Positions 278 to 17,471 of a DNA stretch of 28,955 nt are shown here, piece after piece. The stretch spans positions 1-28,955 of IMG/VR virus record IMGVR_UViG_3300049170_000041. One strand, given 5' to 3'. A program made the translations under genes and the position numbers. Position 1 is the first letter of the stretch. Every line of letters begins with the position of its first letter. Under the pieces are notes generated by a model. The model saw nothing but the letters and a program-made list of their open reading frames with translations. It searched no databases and had not been told where the DNA came from. Source of the DNA: a virus (lineage: Duplodnaviria > Caudoviricetes).

Positions 278-1876
278 CTACTCCGCCGGGGCCGCCTCGT
301 CACGGGCCGCCGAGCTCTTCCGGGCCCGCGGTACCGCTGCCGCCGCCCGCTCGACAAGGCCCTCCTCGTACTCCCGGAAGAGGCTCATGTACGTGTCCGC
401 TGTCAGGACGATCGTGGAGTGCCGCAGCTTCTTGCTCGCGTCGTCGATGTCACCGCCGCCGGCCTTCACGAGCGCCGCCGCCCCGTGCCGCAGATCGCGC
501 AGGTTGATCGGCGGCAGACCTGCCCGCTCCCGAATCGCCTGGAACTCGGCCGAGACGACGTCCGGGTGTAGCCACGAACCGTCGAGCTGGGTCCAGATCT
601 TCCCTGTGTCGATCCAGTCGTATGCCTTCTCTCCGCGGGCACGGAGCTCGGCCGCCCTCTCGTTCCAGGCGTCGCGCTCAAGGAGCTGCTGCCGCCGGCG
701 CTCGCGAAGGACGTTGACCGTCTCGCGGTCGAGCATCACCGCGGCCGTGCTGCTGTCCGTCTTCGGGGACGTCTCTGTAGGCGTCCGGTCGTGAAGGACG
801 ATCTCCGTCAGAACCTCGATGCGCGGCGGGGAGGCGTCGAGGTGCGCGTCCGTCCAGCCCGCCCCTACGCCCTCCCCCCGACGGAGGCCGTGATGGGCGA
901 TCGTGTGGAAGTAGCTGTAGAGCCGGTGGTCCTCGGCCGCGTCGAGGAACGCGCCGAGTTGCTCGGGGGTCCACACCATGACCGGGCTCGGGACGGCGCC
1001 CGTCGCTCGCCAGTGCTCCACACGCTCGTCGGTCCACAGGAGTCCTTTCGGACGGCTGTAGGAGTCCAGCTCGACGAAGGCGGCAGGGTTGAAGGTGAGG
1101 AGCTGCTCGCGGATCGCTGCGTTCAGCGCGGCGCGCAGGGTCCGGCGGATCGCATGACGCGTGGCCAGCCCAGTGACCTTCCGGAAGGGCTTCATCTCCG
1201 CCAGCTTCGCCCGCTCGACCGCCAGGCGCTCGCGCTCGGCCGCCGGGGGCCGGCCGGGCCGCTTCCATTTCGCGCGTTCGATCTGCTCGCGGCGGGCGGT
1301 GTTCTCCGCGTGGACGACGTCGGCCTCGTCGGCAATGGAGGCGAACATCTCCCGCAGGTGTCCGACGCTGAGGCGGTCCAGCCGGTGGTGCCCGATGCGG
1401 GGCTTCAGGTGTACCCGGATGTGGGAGGCGTAGCCGGTCGTGGTGTTGGCGCGCGTCTTCCGGCTCGCTACCCACCGGTCAAGCCACTCCCCCACGAGCG
1501 TCCGCCCGTCAAGGGGTACGCCGACCCCGAGGCGACGCTGCACCTCTGCCACTTCGGGGATGTCCGCGCGGCGGGCGGAGATATCGGCGAGGAAGTCTCC
1601 CACCCGGGCGAGGTCGGCCTCGTCGTCGCCCGCGAGGTCGAGGATGGACTGCACGCGGGAGAGGTCGGTCTGCGCGTCGTCCACACGCGTGTACCCGACG
1701 CGCCGGAACGCACGTCGGGTGACGGTGCCGGCCGCCGGGGGCAGTTCCTGCCGGATGGCGTAGGCGCCGTGGTTCTTTCTCTTCAACTTCGGACAGGACG
1801 TGCCGAGGAGTTTCCCGTCAGGCCCTCGGCACTCGCAGCGCCGGGTGATGCTTCCCGACCGGCGCGCAGCGGGCAT
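278..1876 (-). CDS. int: Tyrosine recombinase (phage integrase), 532 aa
   Basis: Motifs GLRRGE (R), PKT (K), LRDLRH (HxxR position), LRHS..LTADTY (H, Y). RBS GAAGGAG upstream. Adjacent to att. Confidence 0.95.
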   Translation of the reverse strand: MPAARRSGSITRRCECRGPDGKLLGTSCPKLKRKNHGAYAIRQELPPAAGTVTRRAFRRVGYTRVDDAQTDLSRVQSILDLAGDDEADLARVGDFLADISARRADIPEVAEVQRRLGVGVPLDGRTLVGEWLDRWVASRKTRANTTTGYASHIRVHLKPRIGHHRLDRLSVGHLREMFASIADEADVVHAENTARREQIERAKWKRPGRPPAAERERLAVERAKLAEMKPFRKVTGLATRHAIRRTLRAALNAAIREQLLTFNPAAFVELDSYSRPKGLLWTDERVEHWRATGAVPSPVMVWTPEQLGAFLDAAEDHRLYSYFHTIAHHGLRRGEGVGAGWTDAHLDASPPRIEVLTEIVLHDRTPTETSPKTDSSTAAVMLDRETVNVLRERRRQQLLERDAWNERAAELRARGEKAYDWIDTGKIWTQLDGSWLHPDVVSAEFQAIRERAGLPPINLRDLRHGAAALVKAGGGDIDDASKKLRHSTIVLTADTYMSLFREYEEGLVERAAAAVPRARKSSAARDEAAPAE

Positions 1877-11252: not shown

Positions 11253-11467
11253 ACGGCTACACCCCCCTGTTCGACCCGGAGAAGGACGGCCCCGTGTACT
11301 TCCGGGACCTGGACCACGCCCTGGACCGGGCCCGCGCCACGCTCGCCGAGAAGGGCCGGGCGAACTTGCACGACAGGGACGAGACGATCCGGGCCGCTTA
11401 CGGTCTTGCCCACGTGCTCGCCGGCTTGCTCGCCGCCCTCGACGCCGAGAAGGGCCGGACGCCGTGA
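11249..11467 (+). CDS. Hypothetical helical protein, 72 aa (paralog of the previous gene)
   Basis: GTGA overlap; RBS GAGGAGGG; ends LAGLLAALDAEKGRTP. Confidence 0.75.
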   Translation: MNGYTPLFDPEKDGPVYFRDLDHALDRARATLAEKGRANLHDRDETIRAAYGLAHVLAGLLAALDAEKGRTP

Positions 11468-12603
11468 CCACCACCCGCGAACTCAGCGGCGGACAGATCG
11501 CTGTCCTCGTCGCCGCCACCGTCCCCATGGTCGCTGTCGGCGCAGGCGGCGGCTGGGCCACCTTCACCAACGTGAGTGTCGAGTTCGGCCGTGCCGAGAC
11601 CGCCGTCGGCGCCGTCGCGGCCGGGGAGGGCGTCACCCTCGTCCTGGCCCTCGTCATGGTCGGCCTGACCATGCTCGGACAGGCCGCTCCCACCCCCGTC
11701 CGCGTCGGCCTCTGGCTCGCCCCGGCTGCCGCCTCCGTCATCGGCCTCGCCGTCGCCGACACCCTCACCGAGGCCGTCGTCTACGCCGTGACCCCCATGG
11801 GCATGAGCGGCGCCGCCGAAGGCCTCGGCCTCGTCGCCCGCCGGATCGTCGTCTACCGCACCCGGGCGGACGCCGAGGTCGCCCGCCGCAACGCAGACGC
11901 TGCCCGCGCCCTCGCCTACCACCAGGCCCGTGCCCGCAGCCACCCGGACAGGGCCGTCCGCTGGATCTCCGAGCGCGCCACATGGCGCATCGCCCGCATC
12001 ATCGGCGCCGGAGACACCGCGCTCTCCGACGAGCTCCTCGACGTGCAGCGCATCCGCATCACCGAGGGCGCCGACAGCGCACTCCGCACGATGATGGGCG
12101 CGCCTGCTCCGGCCCCGGGACTGAAAGCGCCGGCGCCGACCCGGCACTCCGCGCGGGAGGTCCTGCGGCGTCGCTTCGCCGAGATGGACCCCGAGGACGC
12201 CATCCGCATCACAGGTGATGCGCACCCTGATGCGACCCCGGCCGAGCTCGCCTCTCTGCTCATCGAGCACGGGGTGACTGTGGACGCGGTCGACGTCGTC
12301 CTCGTCCTTGGCCGGCCGCCCGCCAGGGCCGTCCTGGAGCGCGAGGACGCGCATGATGCGGGCACCGATGCGGACGATGCGCCGCAGGCCCCGCCTCTGC
12401 CCGCGCCGTCCAAGGCGGCCGCGATCCTCACCGCTGCCCAGGTCCTCGGCCCGAACGCCAAGGCCGCCGACATCGTCGCCCGCGTCGACCGCATCAATGG
12501 CATCAAGACCGATGCGCCCTACGTCCGCACCGTCCTGTCCCGAGCCCGCGACCCCCGAAAGGACGGCGAGAAGCCGCGCCCGATGGAAGGCGGCTACGCG
12601 TGA
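11464..12603 (+). CDS. Polytopic membrane protein resembling Streptomyces plasmid spread/transfer (SpdB-like) proteins, ~379 aa
   Basis: About four N-terminal hydrophobic segments, an R/A-rich helical region, Pro/Ala linkers and a C-terminal HTH-like segment (YVRTVLSR). Family assignment is from memory of this architecture. Confidence 0.65.
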   Translation: MTTTRELSGGQIAVLVAATVPMVAVGAGGGWATFTNVSVEFGRAETAVGAVAAGEGVTLVLALVMVGLTMLGQAAPTPVRVGLWLAPAAASVIGLAVADTLTEAVVYAVTPMGMSGAAEGLGLVARRIVVYRTRADAEVARRNADAARALAYHQARARSHPDRAVRWISERATWRIARIIGAGDTALSDELLDVQRIRITEGADSALRTMMGAPAPAPGLKAPAPTRHSAREVLRRRFAEMDPEDAIRITGDAHPDATPAELASLLIEHGVTVDAVDVVLVLGRPPARAVLEREDAHDAGTDADDAPQAPPLPAPSKAAAILTAAQVLGPNAKAADIVARVDRINGIKTDAPYVRTVLSRARDPRKDGEKPRPMEGGYA

Positions 12604-12764
12604 TCACCTACCACGCGCTCGGCTACTACGGCCTCCTCGGCATCCCTGCGGCGCTCGTCGTCGCCCGGGTCCTGCCCGTTGGCTCCCCGGCCCGGCGCAT
12701 CACCGCCCGTGCCGCGCTCGGAGCCCTCCTCCTCGTCGCCGCGATCATCGCGCTCTCGTACTGA
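12600..12764 (+). CDS. Small two-TM membrane protein, 54 aa
   Basis: VITYHALGYYGLLGIPAALVVARVLP..RRITARAALGALLLVAAIIALSY; GTGA overlap; RBS GGAAGG. Not in the ORF track. Confidence 0.7.
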   Translation: MITYHALGYYGLLGIPAALVVARVLPVGSPARRITARAALGALLLVAAIIALSY

Positions 12765-12775
12765 AGGACCCCATC

Positions 12776-13075
12776 GTGAAGACCACCCTGCTCGCCGCCA
12801 TCGACACCGCTAGCGCGCACACCATGGCCGCCCCGGCCGCCGCCGGCGCCCCGACCGGATCCGTCCCGATCTCCGTCCTCCTGATCATCGTCCTCAGCAT
12901 CTGGGCCTGGCAGATGCACAAGCACGGCAAGGACACCAAGAAGCTGCACCTGCTCCCCGGGTTCGTCTGCCTCGGCCTCGGCCTGTCGCTCTCCGGCACC
13001 CAGCTCGGCGCGATGATCGGCCAGCTCTTCGGCAGCGTCGGCAACATGCTCGCCACCTTCGTCGGCAGCGCCTGA
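12776..13075 (+). CDS. Small membrane protein, 99 aa (2-3 hydrophobic segments, Spd-like)
   Basis: GTG after GAAGGA; hydrophobic segments VPISVLLIIVLSIWAW and LLPGFVCLGLGLSLSG. Confidence 0.75.
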   Translation: MKTTLLAAIDTASAHTMAAPAAAGAPTGSVPISVLLIIVLSIWAWQMHKHGKDTKKLHLLPGFVCLGLGLSLSGTQLGAMIGQLFGSVGNMLATFVGSA

Positions 13076-13082
13076 CCCTCCC

Positions 13083-13727
13083 GTGGCCCTCGACTCCGAG
13101 GCGGACACCCTCGAACTGCCTCCCGTGCCCACCTTCGGGCGCGGGAGGCCCCGATGGGCCGCCCAACGCATCCACCCCCGCCGCATCAGCGTCGGCCACC
13201 TCAAGCTCTACGGTCGACTCCGCGGCTGGGCCCGCGCCGAGCACCACCCGACCCGCGGCAAGGCCATCGCCGCCCGCGCGTCCGGCCTCGCGCTCGGAGC
13301 CCTGATGACCTGGCGGACGGCGAACGAGCAGCCCCAGCTCCTGGCGCTCGCCGCCGGCGCCTACGCCATCGCGGCCTGGCGCGAGGGACGCCCCGTACCG
13401 CCCACCGAGGAAGAGCTTCAACGGCGCTTCCTCGTCGGCGTCCAGGAGCTCATCGGCGACCGCACCGGCATCCACCTCCGCGAGCTGTACGACGAGTTCC
13501 AGGCCAGGCCCGCGGCCGCCCATCTCGACGACGCGCGCCTCCGGGCGCTCCTCATCCACTGCGGAGTGCCCATCCACAAGAGCCTCCGGATCGGCGACCA
13601 GACCGGCCGCAGCGGCATCAAGGCCGCCGACGTCGAGACCCTCCTCTCCCCCACGCCCGTAGACCCCCCTTCCGAGCCTGTAGACGCAGGTCAGCCGCCC
13701 ACAGAAGTGGCTGTAGACCACGCGTAG
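13083..13727 (+). CDS. Membrane-anchored winged-helix protein, 214 aa (TraB-like termini, no FtsK ATPase domain)
   Basis: Two hydrophobic segments ending AAWREGRP, directly followed by VQELIGDRTGIHLRELY..LRALLIHCGVPIHKSLRIG..GRSGIKAADV. No Walker A motif. Confidence 0.65.
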   Translation: MALDSEADTLELPPVPTFGRGRPRWAAQRIHPRRISVGHLKLYGRLRGWARAEHHPTRGKAIAARASGLALGALMTWRTANEQPQLLALAAGAYAIAAWREGRPVPPTEEELQRRFLVGVQELIGDRTGIHLRELYDEFQARPAAAHLDDARLRALLIHCGVPIHKSLRIGDQTGRSGIKAADVETLLSPTPVDPPSEPVDAGQPPTEVAVDHA

Positions 13728-13744
13728 AGCAGGCTGTAGACCAC
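13657..13744 (+). repeat. Direct-repeat array CTGTAGAC (clt-like locus)
   Basis: ccgtagac 13657, ctgtagac 13678, ctgtagac 13711, gcgtagag 13722, ctgtagac 13734. GGCTGTAGACCAC occurs twice (13709-13721, 13732-13744). Confidence 0.75.
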
Positions 13745-13756
13745 CCAGGAGACCCC

Positions 13757-13846
13757 ATGCGACAGCACCTTCACACCCTCATCCGCGCCGCCGCCGACTA
13801 CTGCGCGGCCTGCGGCTGGTGGTCCAAGCCCTTCTGCGGACACTGA
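13757..13846 (+). CDS. Cys/Trp-rich microprotein, 29 aa
   Basis: RBS CAGGAGA; MRQHLHTLIRAAADYCAACGWWSKPFCGH with CxxC..CxH. Confidence 0.6.
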   Translation: MRQHLHTLIRAAADYCAACGWWSKPFCGH

Positions 13847-15370: not shown

Positions 15371-15853
15371 ATGCCCCGAGGTGGACACGCTGCGTCTGGC
15401 CCGCCGCCGGACCCGAACGCACTGCGCCGCCGCCGGCCGTCCGACGCGGCCGGGTGGAAGACGCTGCCCGCCGAGGGTCGCACCGGTCCACTGCCCGAGT
15501 GGCCGCTGTCCGAGTCGACCGACCGCGAGTGGAACCTGTGGGCCGAGCTGTGGGAGAAGCCGCAGGCGGTGATGTGGGAGGAGATGGGCCAGGCCCTGGA
15601 GGTCGCCCTGTTCGTGCGGACTCTGGCGGAGGCCGAACGGCCGGACGCCCGGGTCGATATCAAGAAGATGATCCGCGGCTACCTCGACAGCCTCGGCCTG
15701 TCGGTCTCCGGCATGAACCGCAACCGCTGGCGGATCGCCCCCGTCATGGACACCGAGGCTGACGTGGTGCCGTTGGAGGCGGACCGCACCGAGCGGCGCC
15801 GGCCGTCGGCCCGGGACCGGCTGAAGGTCGTGCCCAGTGGCGAAGGCAGCTGA
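15371..15853 (+). CDS. terS: Terminase small subunit, ~160 aa
   Basis: Lies between HNH and terL; RBS GAGGAG; SGPPPDPNALRR..PQAVMWE..LGLS pattern. Confidence 0.8.
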   Translation: MPRGGHAASGPPPDPNALRRRRPSDAAGWKTLPAEGRTGPLPEWPLSESTDREWNLWAELWEKPQAVMWEEMGQALEVALFVRTLAEAERPDARVDIKKMIRGYLDSLGLSVSGMNRNRWRIAPVMDTEADVVPLEADRTERRRPSARDRLKVVPSGEGS

Positions 15854-17471
15854 GGCCGCCGCCGAGTTCGTCGTCGACTTCTCCACCCTCTGGATCGTCC
15901 CCGACTGGATCGAAGCCCACTGCCCGATCCCCGACGGCTTCCGCCAGGGCGAGGACCTGGAGCTGTACCCGTGGCAGCTGTGGTGCACCGTCAACCACTA
16001 CCGGGTCAAGCCCGGCGCCACCGTCGGGCAGCTCGCGCCGGCGTTCCACTACCGCCGATCCCAGATCGTCGCCCCGCAGAAGACCGGCAAGGGCCCCTGG
16101 TCCGCCACCATCACCCTGGCCGAAGCAGCTGGCCCGGTCGTCTTCAACGGCTGGGCCCGGGGCGGCGAGGTGTACCGGTGCTCTGCCCACGGCTGCAGCT
16201 GCGGCTGGTGGTACCAGTACGAGGCGGGCGAGCCGATGGGCACACCGTGGCCGACCCCGCTGATCCAGCTCGTGGCCACGGCCGAGGACCAGGTCGACAA
16301 CGTCTACCGGCCGCTGCGGAACATGGTGAAGCACGGGCCGCTGTCGGAGTTCATGCGGGTGGGCGAGGAGTTCACCCGCGTCGGCGACCAGGGCCGCATC
16401 GACACAGTGACCTCGTCGGCCATGAGCCGGCTGGGCAACCCGATCACGTTCGCCAACCAGGACGAGACGGGGCTGTGGACAACGGCGAACAAGCTGCGCC
16501 GGGTCGCCGAGACCCAGCGTCGTGGCCTGGCCGGCATGGGTGGCCGGTCGATGGAGACCACGAACGGGTGGGATCCGTCGGAGAACTCGGTGGCGCAGAC
16601 GACGTCGGAGTCCCGGGCCCGGGACATCTTCAAGTACCACCCGCAGGCGCCGAAGACCCTGTCCTACGCGAGCAAGAGGGATCGCCGGAAGATCCACACG
16701 GTGGTGTACGCCGGTTCCTCGCACGTCGACCTGGACGCGATCGAGGCCGAGGCCGCCGAGATCATGGAGAAGGACCCGGCGCAGGCCGAACGGTTCTTCG
16801 GCAACCGGTGCGTGGCCGGTTCGGCGTCCTGGATGGACGGGGCGAAGTGGGCGGCGAAGGCCGCACCACGGCACGTGCGCCCGCTGACCCGCATCGTCCT
16901 CGGGTTCGACGGCTCCGAGGTCGACGACTGGACGGCGATCCGGGCCGAGACGATGGACGGCTACCAGTTCACCCCGTTGTACGGGCCGAACGACGAGCCG
17001 ACCATCTGGAACCCGGCGGACTACGGCGGCCAGGTCCCGGCGGCCGAGGTGCACGCCGCGATGTCGCAGCTGATGGCCCGCTACGACGTGGTCCGGCTGT
17101 ACGCGGACCCGCCGTACTGGGAGACCGAGATCGACCAGTGGGTGGACCTGTACGGCGAGGAACGCGTCATCCGCTGGTACACCCGCCGCATCGTCCAGAT
17201 GCACGCCGCCTGCGAGCGGCTGAAGACGGACATCGTGCGAGGGGCCAGCGGCACCGTCACGTTCACCCACGACGGATGCCCGACCACCCAGGACCACATG
17301 GAGAACGCGCGCGCGGCCGCCCGCCCGATGGACCGCTACGTGCTGAAGAAGCCCAGCCCCAGCCAGAAGATCGACGCGGTCATTCCCAGCGTCCTGGCCC
17401 ACGAGGCGCTCGGCGACGTCATCGCCGCCGGCCTCGCGGAGAAGCAGATGAGTTTCTACTACGGCAGCTGA
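15837..17471 (+). CDS. terL: Terminase large subunit, 544 aa
   Basis: Walker A PQKTGKG, Walker B NQDE, motif III TTN, nuclease LGFDGS..DD and KIDA. Confidence 0.93.
   Translation: MAKAAEAAAEFVVDFSTLWIVPDWIEAHCPIPDGFRQGEDLELYPWQLWCTVNHYRVKPGATVGQLAPAFHYRRSQIVAPQKTGKGPWSATITLAEAAGPVVFNGWARGGEVYRCSAHGCSCGWWYQYEAGEPMGTPWPTPLIQLVATAEDQVDNVYRPLRNMVKHGPLSEFMRVGEEFTRVGDQGRIDTVTSSAMSRLGNPITFANQDETGLWTTANKLRRVAETQRRGLAGMGGRSMETTNGWDPSENSVAQTTSESRARDIFKYHPQAPKTLSYASKRDRRKIHTVVYAGSSHVDLDAIEAEAAEIMEKDPAQAERFFGNRCVAGSASWMDGAKWAAKAAPRHVRPLTRIVLGFDGSEVDDWTAIRAETMDGYQFTPLYGPNDEPTIWNPADYGGQVPAAEVHAAMSQLMARYDVVRLYADPPYWETEIDQWVDLYGEERVIRWYTRRIVQMHAACERLKTDIVRGASGTVTFTHDGCPTTQDHMENARAAARPMDRYVLKKPSPSQKIDAVIPSVLAHEALGDVIAAGLAEKQMSFYYGS

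Follow-up and report, generated by a model that had tools for sequence, protein, structure and literature searches.

The phage gene described here encodes a motor-less relative of the DNA-recognition domain of AICE-type TraB, carried on a predicted membrane hairpin. The gene, which we call mini-TraB, is accompanied by an array of short repeats at its own 3' end and by a conserved cassette of membrane-protein genes. We give about even chances to the interpretation that its product is an adaptor that docks the DNA of its element on a Spd membrane complex for spread within the mycelium; the TraB-domain ancestry, the adjacent array and the Spd-like neighbours all point to it. According to this scenario, the winged helix of mini-TraB likely binds the array, whereby phage or linear-plasmid DNA would be tethered to an SpdB-type membrane complex, and this complex would likely aid the passage of the element between hyphal compartments. 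The driving force might be diffusion, or a motor acting in trans, either a TraB of another element in the cell or an FtsK-family protein of the host. More tentative, and in our estimate rather doubtful, is a fuller version in which a clt-like address specific to each element is recognised by mini-TraB, which then passes the DNA on to a Spd channel, so that phage genomes cross compartments naked, with neither virions nor a pump of their own, by a mechanism shared by widespread temperate Streptomyces phages and giant linear plasmids.

The window, i.e., the whole stretch of 28,955 nucleotides that was analysed, is a record of a temperate Streptomyces-type phage that is about 77% complete and encodes an integrase, a primase-polymerase, a helicase, an HNH protein and a terminase. 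Its prophage context is given by a tyrosine integrase (278..1876, minus strand) and by the terminase large subunit (15837..17471, plus strand), at which the virion genes start. The mini-TraB gene (13083..13727, plus strand; GTG start, GC3 0.89) is the last in a run of coupled genes for membrane proteins of 379, 54 and 99 aa, and this cassette lies behind the replication genes and is oriented as they are. Its 214-aa open reading frame is a real, conserved gene, laid out as an N-terminal helix, a helical hairpin, a TraB-type winged helix and a tail overprinted with the repeat array. The motifs quoted in the preliminary description of this DNA are present in the intact frame. Its report of a missing FtsK motor also held, as the frame is open throughout and the FtsK motor family PF01580 has no match anywhere in the record (~77% of the genome). 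Pfam, PHROGs and NCBIfam assigned the protein to no family, a sequence search of the PDB returned nothing meaningful, and an ESM Atlas search yielded two actinomycete clusters; no RNA holder was among the entries listed. Directly after the array, a 29-aa ORF rich in Cys and His starts (13757..13846, plus strand), which recurs in close relatives. At some other loci (L004, L006, L020, L025) and in some relatives (P0004, P0016, P0058, P0079, P0103), the mini-TraB frame runs through the array into the downstream Cys-rich ORF, giving proteins of 295–330 aa.

The AlphaFold2 model of the protein (mean pLDDT 82.5) places a helix at residues 109–124, a strand at 129–131, helices at 132–141 and 150–159, strands at 165–170 and 173–180 and a helix at 181–188. 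Residues 109–188 (13407..13646, plus strand), with a net charge of −2, are thus modelled as a winged helix. The VIA-align rows for the model were nearly all winged-helix domains, and the best of them was the LOTUS domain of Marf1 (Z 7.4, rmsd 2.8, 67 aligned residues). An RNA-binding reading of this match was dropped, its score lying within the range of common arrangements. Foldseek gave no match in the PDB at E ≤ 1e-3. FtsK-gamma chains were not among the structure matches listed, which does not by itself rule this family out.

Profile comparisons support the homology of this domain to the C-terminal domain of AICE-type TraB. The family profile matched AICE-type TraB C-termini with a probability of 97.3% (E 2.7e-11, 75 columns), and a comparison by the tool's own method gave 90.3%. 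As a control, 40 block shuffles reached at most 26.5 bits (top probability 50.8%) and a reversed profile 15.4 bits, against 61 bits for the real one. Reciprocally, a TraB-tip profile matched 71 of the 150 family representatives listed (iE < 0.01 in that set), at best with 3.9e-9. Four TraB subclades aligned in register with the family (95.8, 93.8, 85.9 and 35.9%). The broad family profile scored best, with low single scores, in the last 45 residues of 70 of 82 TraBs (28 of 37 non-redundant). When modelled, the AICE TraB tip showed a helix and strand order identical to that of the window's domain, and it likewise matched generic winged helices only. Thus, the TraB-type winged helix that had been recognised in the C-terminal half is borne out both by the model and by the reciprocal profile match.

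The same domain had also been proposed for comparison with FtsK-gamma and with TraB in general, and here the outcome was mixed: the shared order of elements holds for the AICE-type tip, but no profile match was obtained with FtsK-gamma (PF09397; no Pfam match at E ≤ 1, profile–profile 0.5–0.7%) or with the TraB tips of pSVH1 and pIJ101 (0.2% and 0.35%, from shallow alignments of 5 and 4 sequences). The AICE TraB tip did not match these two tips either. DUF3631 (PF12307), for which the family has no Pfam match, scored 33.6% against the family and 96.5% against the AICE TraB tip in profile–profile comparison; since the AICE tip matches it as well, the family, the tip and DUF3631 form one winged-helix clan. 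Still, DUF3631 resembles the family less than do three of the four TraB subclades of similar depth, and it carries the domain on longer proteins. A quick tree of 83 columns put the family on one side (SH-aLRT 96) together with two TraB tips on a flagged long branch, and it gives neither the donor nor the direction of descent. The TraB tip closest to the family belongs to the full-length TraB of locus L177 (iE 1.5e-7). That protein (L177:1856-4582, minus strand) and the one encoded at L268:4353-6935 (minus strand) have FtsK-gamma at the N-terminus (Pfam E 2e-19) and a family-like winged helix at the C-terminus, and their genes sit in a GntR-spd-traB element.

The helical hairpin (residues 58–101; 13254..13385, plus strand) is the predicted membrane anchor. 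Two hydrophobic segments had been described in this half of the protein, and the AlphaFold2 model indeed has helices at residues 58–82 and 84–101; their hydrophobicity, however, is weak in the window's protein, where the best 19-residue Kyte–Doolittle mean is 0.87; the median for 139 remoter relatives of more than 150 aa is 1.79. Membrane insertion of the window's protein is accordingly a prediction drawn from the wider family. Profile–profile comparison of the N-terminal half with TraB N-termini detected no homology (probability ≤4.4%), and therefore the earlier picture of a TraB with its middle deleted is not supported.

Among proteins of 117–375 aa, 125 homologs were found at E ≤ 1e-3. The 120 of them that were listed span 184–305 aa, and those with names are all hypothetical proteins of Streptomyces. 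A search of proteins of 376–2000 aa found no family members, which is weak evidence. With a profile of the C-terminal domain built from 28 sequences, 242 clusters were matched at E ≤ 1e-3 (clusters at 50% identity; 1.84 billion representatives searched). Among the 150 clusters listed, the median length is 233 aa; three of them reach at least 450 aa, and the extra length there consists of repeats of the winged-helix domain, not of a motor. The Pfam FtsK family was found in none of these 150 relatives, and the sole Walker-A-like word among them sits in a 257-aa protein. A one-off deletion is excluded by the lack of a motor in every listed relative, and the motor-less form is supported as a stable family. 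As for domain architecture, P0192 (906 aa), P0174 (472 aa) and P0225 (316 aa) carry three to six or more tandem winged-helix copies and no membrane segment, while P0209, P0249 and P0251 combine the hairpin with two winged-helix copies.

A survey of 401 Streptomyces genomes gave 47 matches in 44 genomes (E ≤ 1.2e-6), one of which is the genome that served as centre. About 11% of the sampled genomes thus have the cassette, in most cases with an SpdB-like gene at its head. Of nine weaker matches (E 4.8e-5 to 1.9e-3), eight were inspected: six were a recurring non-family frame, one was a family member and one was a true TraB. The terminase cluster of the window was found in 47 of the first 57 loci. 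The family also includes gp26 of phage VWB (Foldseek E 3e-5; profile E 1.7e-13) and gp85 of phage Kromp, and the gene is intact in both of these isolated phages.

Base-composition-corrected divergence at second positions relative to fourfold sites, computed over 31 genes, was 0.24 for the winged helix, 0.27 for the hairpin, 0.85 for residues 2–57 and 1.75 for the tail. The value for the hairpin indicates purifying selection. An uncorrected NG86 dN/dS of 0.65 (38 genes) was set aside in favour of these ratios, as saturation at GC3 inflates it.

At the 3' end of the gene, overlapping its last codons and the stop, lies the clt-like array (13659..13741, plus strand). GTAGAC occurs at 13659, 13680, 13713 and 13736, GTAGAG at 13724 and GCAGGTCA at 13686; the repeats are direct and helically phased, with spacings of 21, 33, 11 and 12 bp. 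At least three GTAGAY words within 120 nt of the domain end were counted in 36 of 40 non-redundant close loci, compared with 1 of 6506 other windows, and that lone background window is the displaced array of locus L001. The core GTAGACGCAGGTCA is invariant across 13 aligned loci, and GTA is the codon of 97 of the 108 valines in the tail, compared with 28 of the 399 valines in the gene body. At loci L001 and L002, an HNH-like ORF stands between the domain and the array, and the array is kept, out of frame, about 480 bp further on. Since it survives there out of frame, the array is a DNA element, and the array adjacent to the gene is under selection at the DNA level. The inserted HNH-like ORF (L001:10590-11030; same place in L002) gives the protein a new tail and is possibly a homing endonuclease that targets the array site. 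Outside the array, 16 of the 17 GTAGAC words of the window lie on the minus strand; this bias was rejected as a signal, being likely due to GTC-TAC codons in plus-strand genes.

Other clades of the family have different repeat words, some in the opposite orientation. At least three copies of one of five motif classes were present in 74 of 92 non-redundant loci versus 46 of 4596 background windows, a figure that is partly circular because the classes were picked from these same tails; the other 18 loci have no array of these classes. The motif classes track the tree clades of the mini-protein, for which kinship alone can be sufficient. GCAGGTC/GACCTGC was found within 250 nt at 72 of 94 loci (587 of 4982 background windows), and the full GACCTGC word lies behind 28 of 80 traB genes. 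The word (T)GACCTGC recurs in clt-type regions of unrelated TraB elements (L110:8142-8370, L111, L219, L225, L268 and others) as well as in the family arrays. Possibly, a host factor common to these elements acts at this word; a literature text search for it returned no useful paper.

When the same repeat scan was run on traB genes as positive controls, it returned repeats directly 3' of them, including CCGCACA in pJV1 and GACCCGG(A) in pSVH1, the latter of which we take to be the published clt site. Judged by sequence, the layout of the mini-TraB array matches that of the clt of real traB genes. According to PMC3583192, CCGCACA is the repeat of pJV1, and the clt of pWTY27, to which the Tra protein binds specifically, comprises 16 bp of the 3' end of the tra gene together with the 159 bp next to it. 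For the AICE-type tip, we infer clt binding itself from the adjacent repeats, because the tips that have been studied, those of pSVH1 and pIJ101, do not match the family. Overall, the role of a DNA–membrane tether, already entertained in the preliminary description, has gained a candidate cis site in the array. The weak hydrophobicity of the hairpin in this clade, the net charge of −2 on the winged helix and the 18 loci that lack an array of the five classes count against the adaptor reading.

Upstream of mini-TraB, the cassette consists of a 379-aa four-helix membrane protein in the SpdB position (11464..12603, plus strand; phrog_16651), a 54-aa two-helix membrane protein translationally coupled to it (12600..12764, plus strand) and, directly before mini-TraB, a 99-aa membrane protein (12776..13075, plus strand). 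The cluster profile of the 379-aa protein matches an SpdB2 homolog of pFP11 at E 5.7e-8, and the SpdB2 and DUF2637 profiles had no direct match to the window's protein, which we therefore call SpdB-like by its cluster, not by direct match. Proteins with DUF2637 occur in the cassettes of relatives (VWB gp24, L029, pFRL5, pSCL3). The 99-aa family, or one of two other membrane families, lies directly upstream at 101 of the 109 loci with an upstream ORF called; profile–profile comparison of the 99-aa protein with the small membrane gene behind AICE traB gave at most 5%. An SpdB-like gene lies upstream in 58 of the 88 loci with at least three upstream ORFs called, and in 20 of these 88 the slot is filled by a small HTH protein, so a pore is not a constant component. 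Just upstream of the cassette at L048:6572-8038 and in Kromp (gp79, L278:1103-2614), there is a membrane glycosyltransferase gene.

The cassette resembles Spd operons (spdB3-spd79-spdB2 of pSVH1; DUF2637/PF10935) in that its small membrane genes are coupled and the first of the series encodes an SpdB-like protein with four helices. According to PMC4447253, spdB3, spd79 and spdB2 are required for spread, SpdB2 forms pores, and its C-terminal domain interacts with the C-terminal domain of TraB in two-hybrid tests. The same source holds that the spread of pSVH1 is thought to depend on the TraB motor, and a cassette without a motor thus counts against the adaptor reading. The family profile matched neither the Spd proteins of pSVH1 nor the ten phiC31 genes around gp25; Spd198 and other proteins of pSVH1 and pSG5 were considered as homologs and rejected, none of them being homologous.

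The cassettes of pFRL5 and pSCL3 run in the order GntR (divergent), WhiB-like, DUF2637, two or three membrane genes, mini-gene and array, and this GntR-led order is the layout of plasmid traR-spd operons. Of 17 plasmid matches, 13 span 80% or more of the protein of pFRL5; these are on large plasmids, and 12 of the 13 are located 5.5–7.9 kb from the end of the record (topology and gene order were examined for pFRL5 and pSCL3). In both of the latter (L284:6995-8100 in pSCL3, L279:4455-5580 in pFRL5), about 7 kb separate the cassette from the end of a giant linear plasmid, towards which it is transcribed, and its repeats flank TGACCTGC on both sides. A 34.5-kb circular record filed as a plasmid (L058, NZ_CP108372.1) proved to be the whole genome of a temperate phage, cassette included. 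Searches for a TraB motor found none in the window (~77% of its genome), in VWB, in Kromp, in the NBC_01335 phage circle or in pFRL5; for pFRL5, this means not found with three queries, because PF01580 scores many TraB proteins weakly and a set of 83 TraBs missed the TraB of pJV1. TraB relatives were detected in 112 of 301 Streptomyces genomes with one query.

Among other explanations, a tether for replication or inheritance, whereby an array-bound excised circle or linear-plasmid end is held at the membrane, either to be copied there or to have its copies delivered to branches and spores, seems to us unlikely but worth keeping in mind. It requires no motor and agrees with the position of the cassette behind the replication genes, with the excised phage circle assembled as a plasmid, with the nearness of the gene to plasmid ends and with the dispensable SpdB slot. 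On the other hand, spread is favoured by the origin of the domain in a transfer protein and by the SpdB-like genes that accompany it after a GntR regulator, and an integrated prophage is inherited without any tether. The small membrane-anchored DNA-binding protein p16.7 of phage phi29 is an analog for a tether role; to our knowledge, its DNA binding is not sequence-specific and no repeat array is cognate to it. We consider it more improbable that TraB pumps of AICEs in the same host read the array and that the mini-protein would join or block their rings, as in the adaptor and dominant-negative roles put forward in the preliminary description. TraB relatives are indeed common in the genus, the closest match of the C-terminal domain lies on a full TraB, and similar words stand behind some full-length TraB genes (GTAGAG five times in L268 and four times in L233). 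Yet the N-terminal part, the region expected to co-assemble, has no TraB homology, and the repeat motif tracks the clades of the mini-protein itself, as for a cognate pair. A purely inhibitory role is disfavoured because the element carries its own cognate array.

The winged-helix fold, together with phased repeats at the end of an operon shortly upstream of the packaging genes, could also suit a membrane-bound transcription regulator, the repeats being operators for the downstream genes towards the HNH-terminase block and the TraB ancestry incidental. We regard this as quite improbable, given that the same array layout lies behind traB genes, where it is the transfer site, that the orientation of the array flips between clades and that the array is kept on linear plasmids with other downstream genes. 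Finally, a decayed traB remnant with no current function would fit the uncorrected dN/dS and a frameshifted copy of the gene on plasmid NZ_CP109179.1, the one such copy seen; against 242 clusters, the low corrected ratios of the winged helix and hairpin and the intact genes of VWB and Kromp, this explanation is largely refuted by conservation and strikes us as very improbable indeed.

The adaptor reading places mini-TraB next to the TraB/Tra proteins of actinomycete ICEs and Streptomyces plasmids. Shared features are the homologous C-terminal winged helix (AICE type) and the predicted membrane hairpin that precedes it; in addition, the 3' end of the gene contains or is followed by short repeats, and SpdB-like genes are found in the vicinity. 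Unlike these proteins, mini-TraB lacks the FtsK ATPase (214 aa versus ~550–860), its N-terminal part has no detectable homology to theirs and its winged helix does not match the pSVH1 and pIJ101 tips; moreover, its genes sit in tailed phages and near the ends of giant linear plasmids. The Streptomyces plasmid-phage pZL12, as cited in PMC3583192, is likewise a virion-making element with plasmid-type transfer or spread genes, but it has a full-length pump, of which no trace was found in Kromp, VWB, the NBC_01335 circle or the window. It has been suggested since at least 2015 that the homologues of SpdB2 in phiC31 and VWB help the spread of phage DNA (PMC4447253); the part of that paper available makes no mention of the TraB-type winged helix of VWB gp26 and its clt-like array, two genes past gp24. 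In the open literature, which covers Streptomyces conjugation and the VWB genome incompletely, we found no phage or linear plasmid described as having a TraB-type gene that lacks the motor and is accompanied by a clt-like array.

Overall, mini-TraB with its own array is a real and conserved addition to the TraB-clt-Spd systems. To the open question of how giant linear plasmids and the DNA of phages travel within a multicellular mycelium, this adds a candidate specificity protein and a candidate DNA site with clade-specific motifs, which are found together in two phages that can be cultured (VWB gp26 and Kromp gp85). With the protein, the site and these two carriers named, the idea that actinophages spread by means of Spd proteins becomes directly testable. 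If the system works without an ATPase of its own, DNA recognition would be separated from pumping in the TraB/Spd machine. The family also offers many natural pairs of protein and repeat from which to learn how this winged helix reads DNA.
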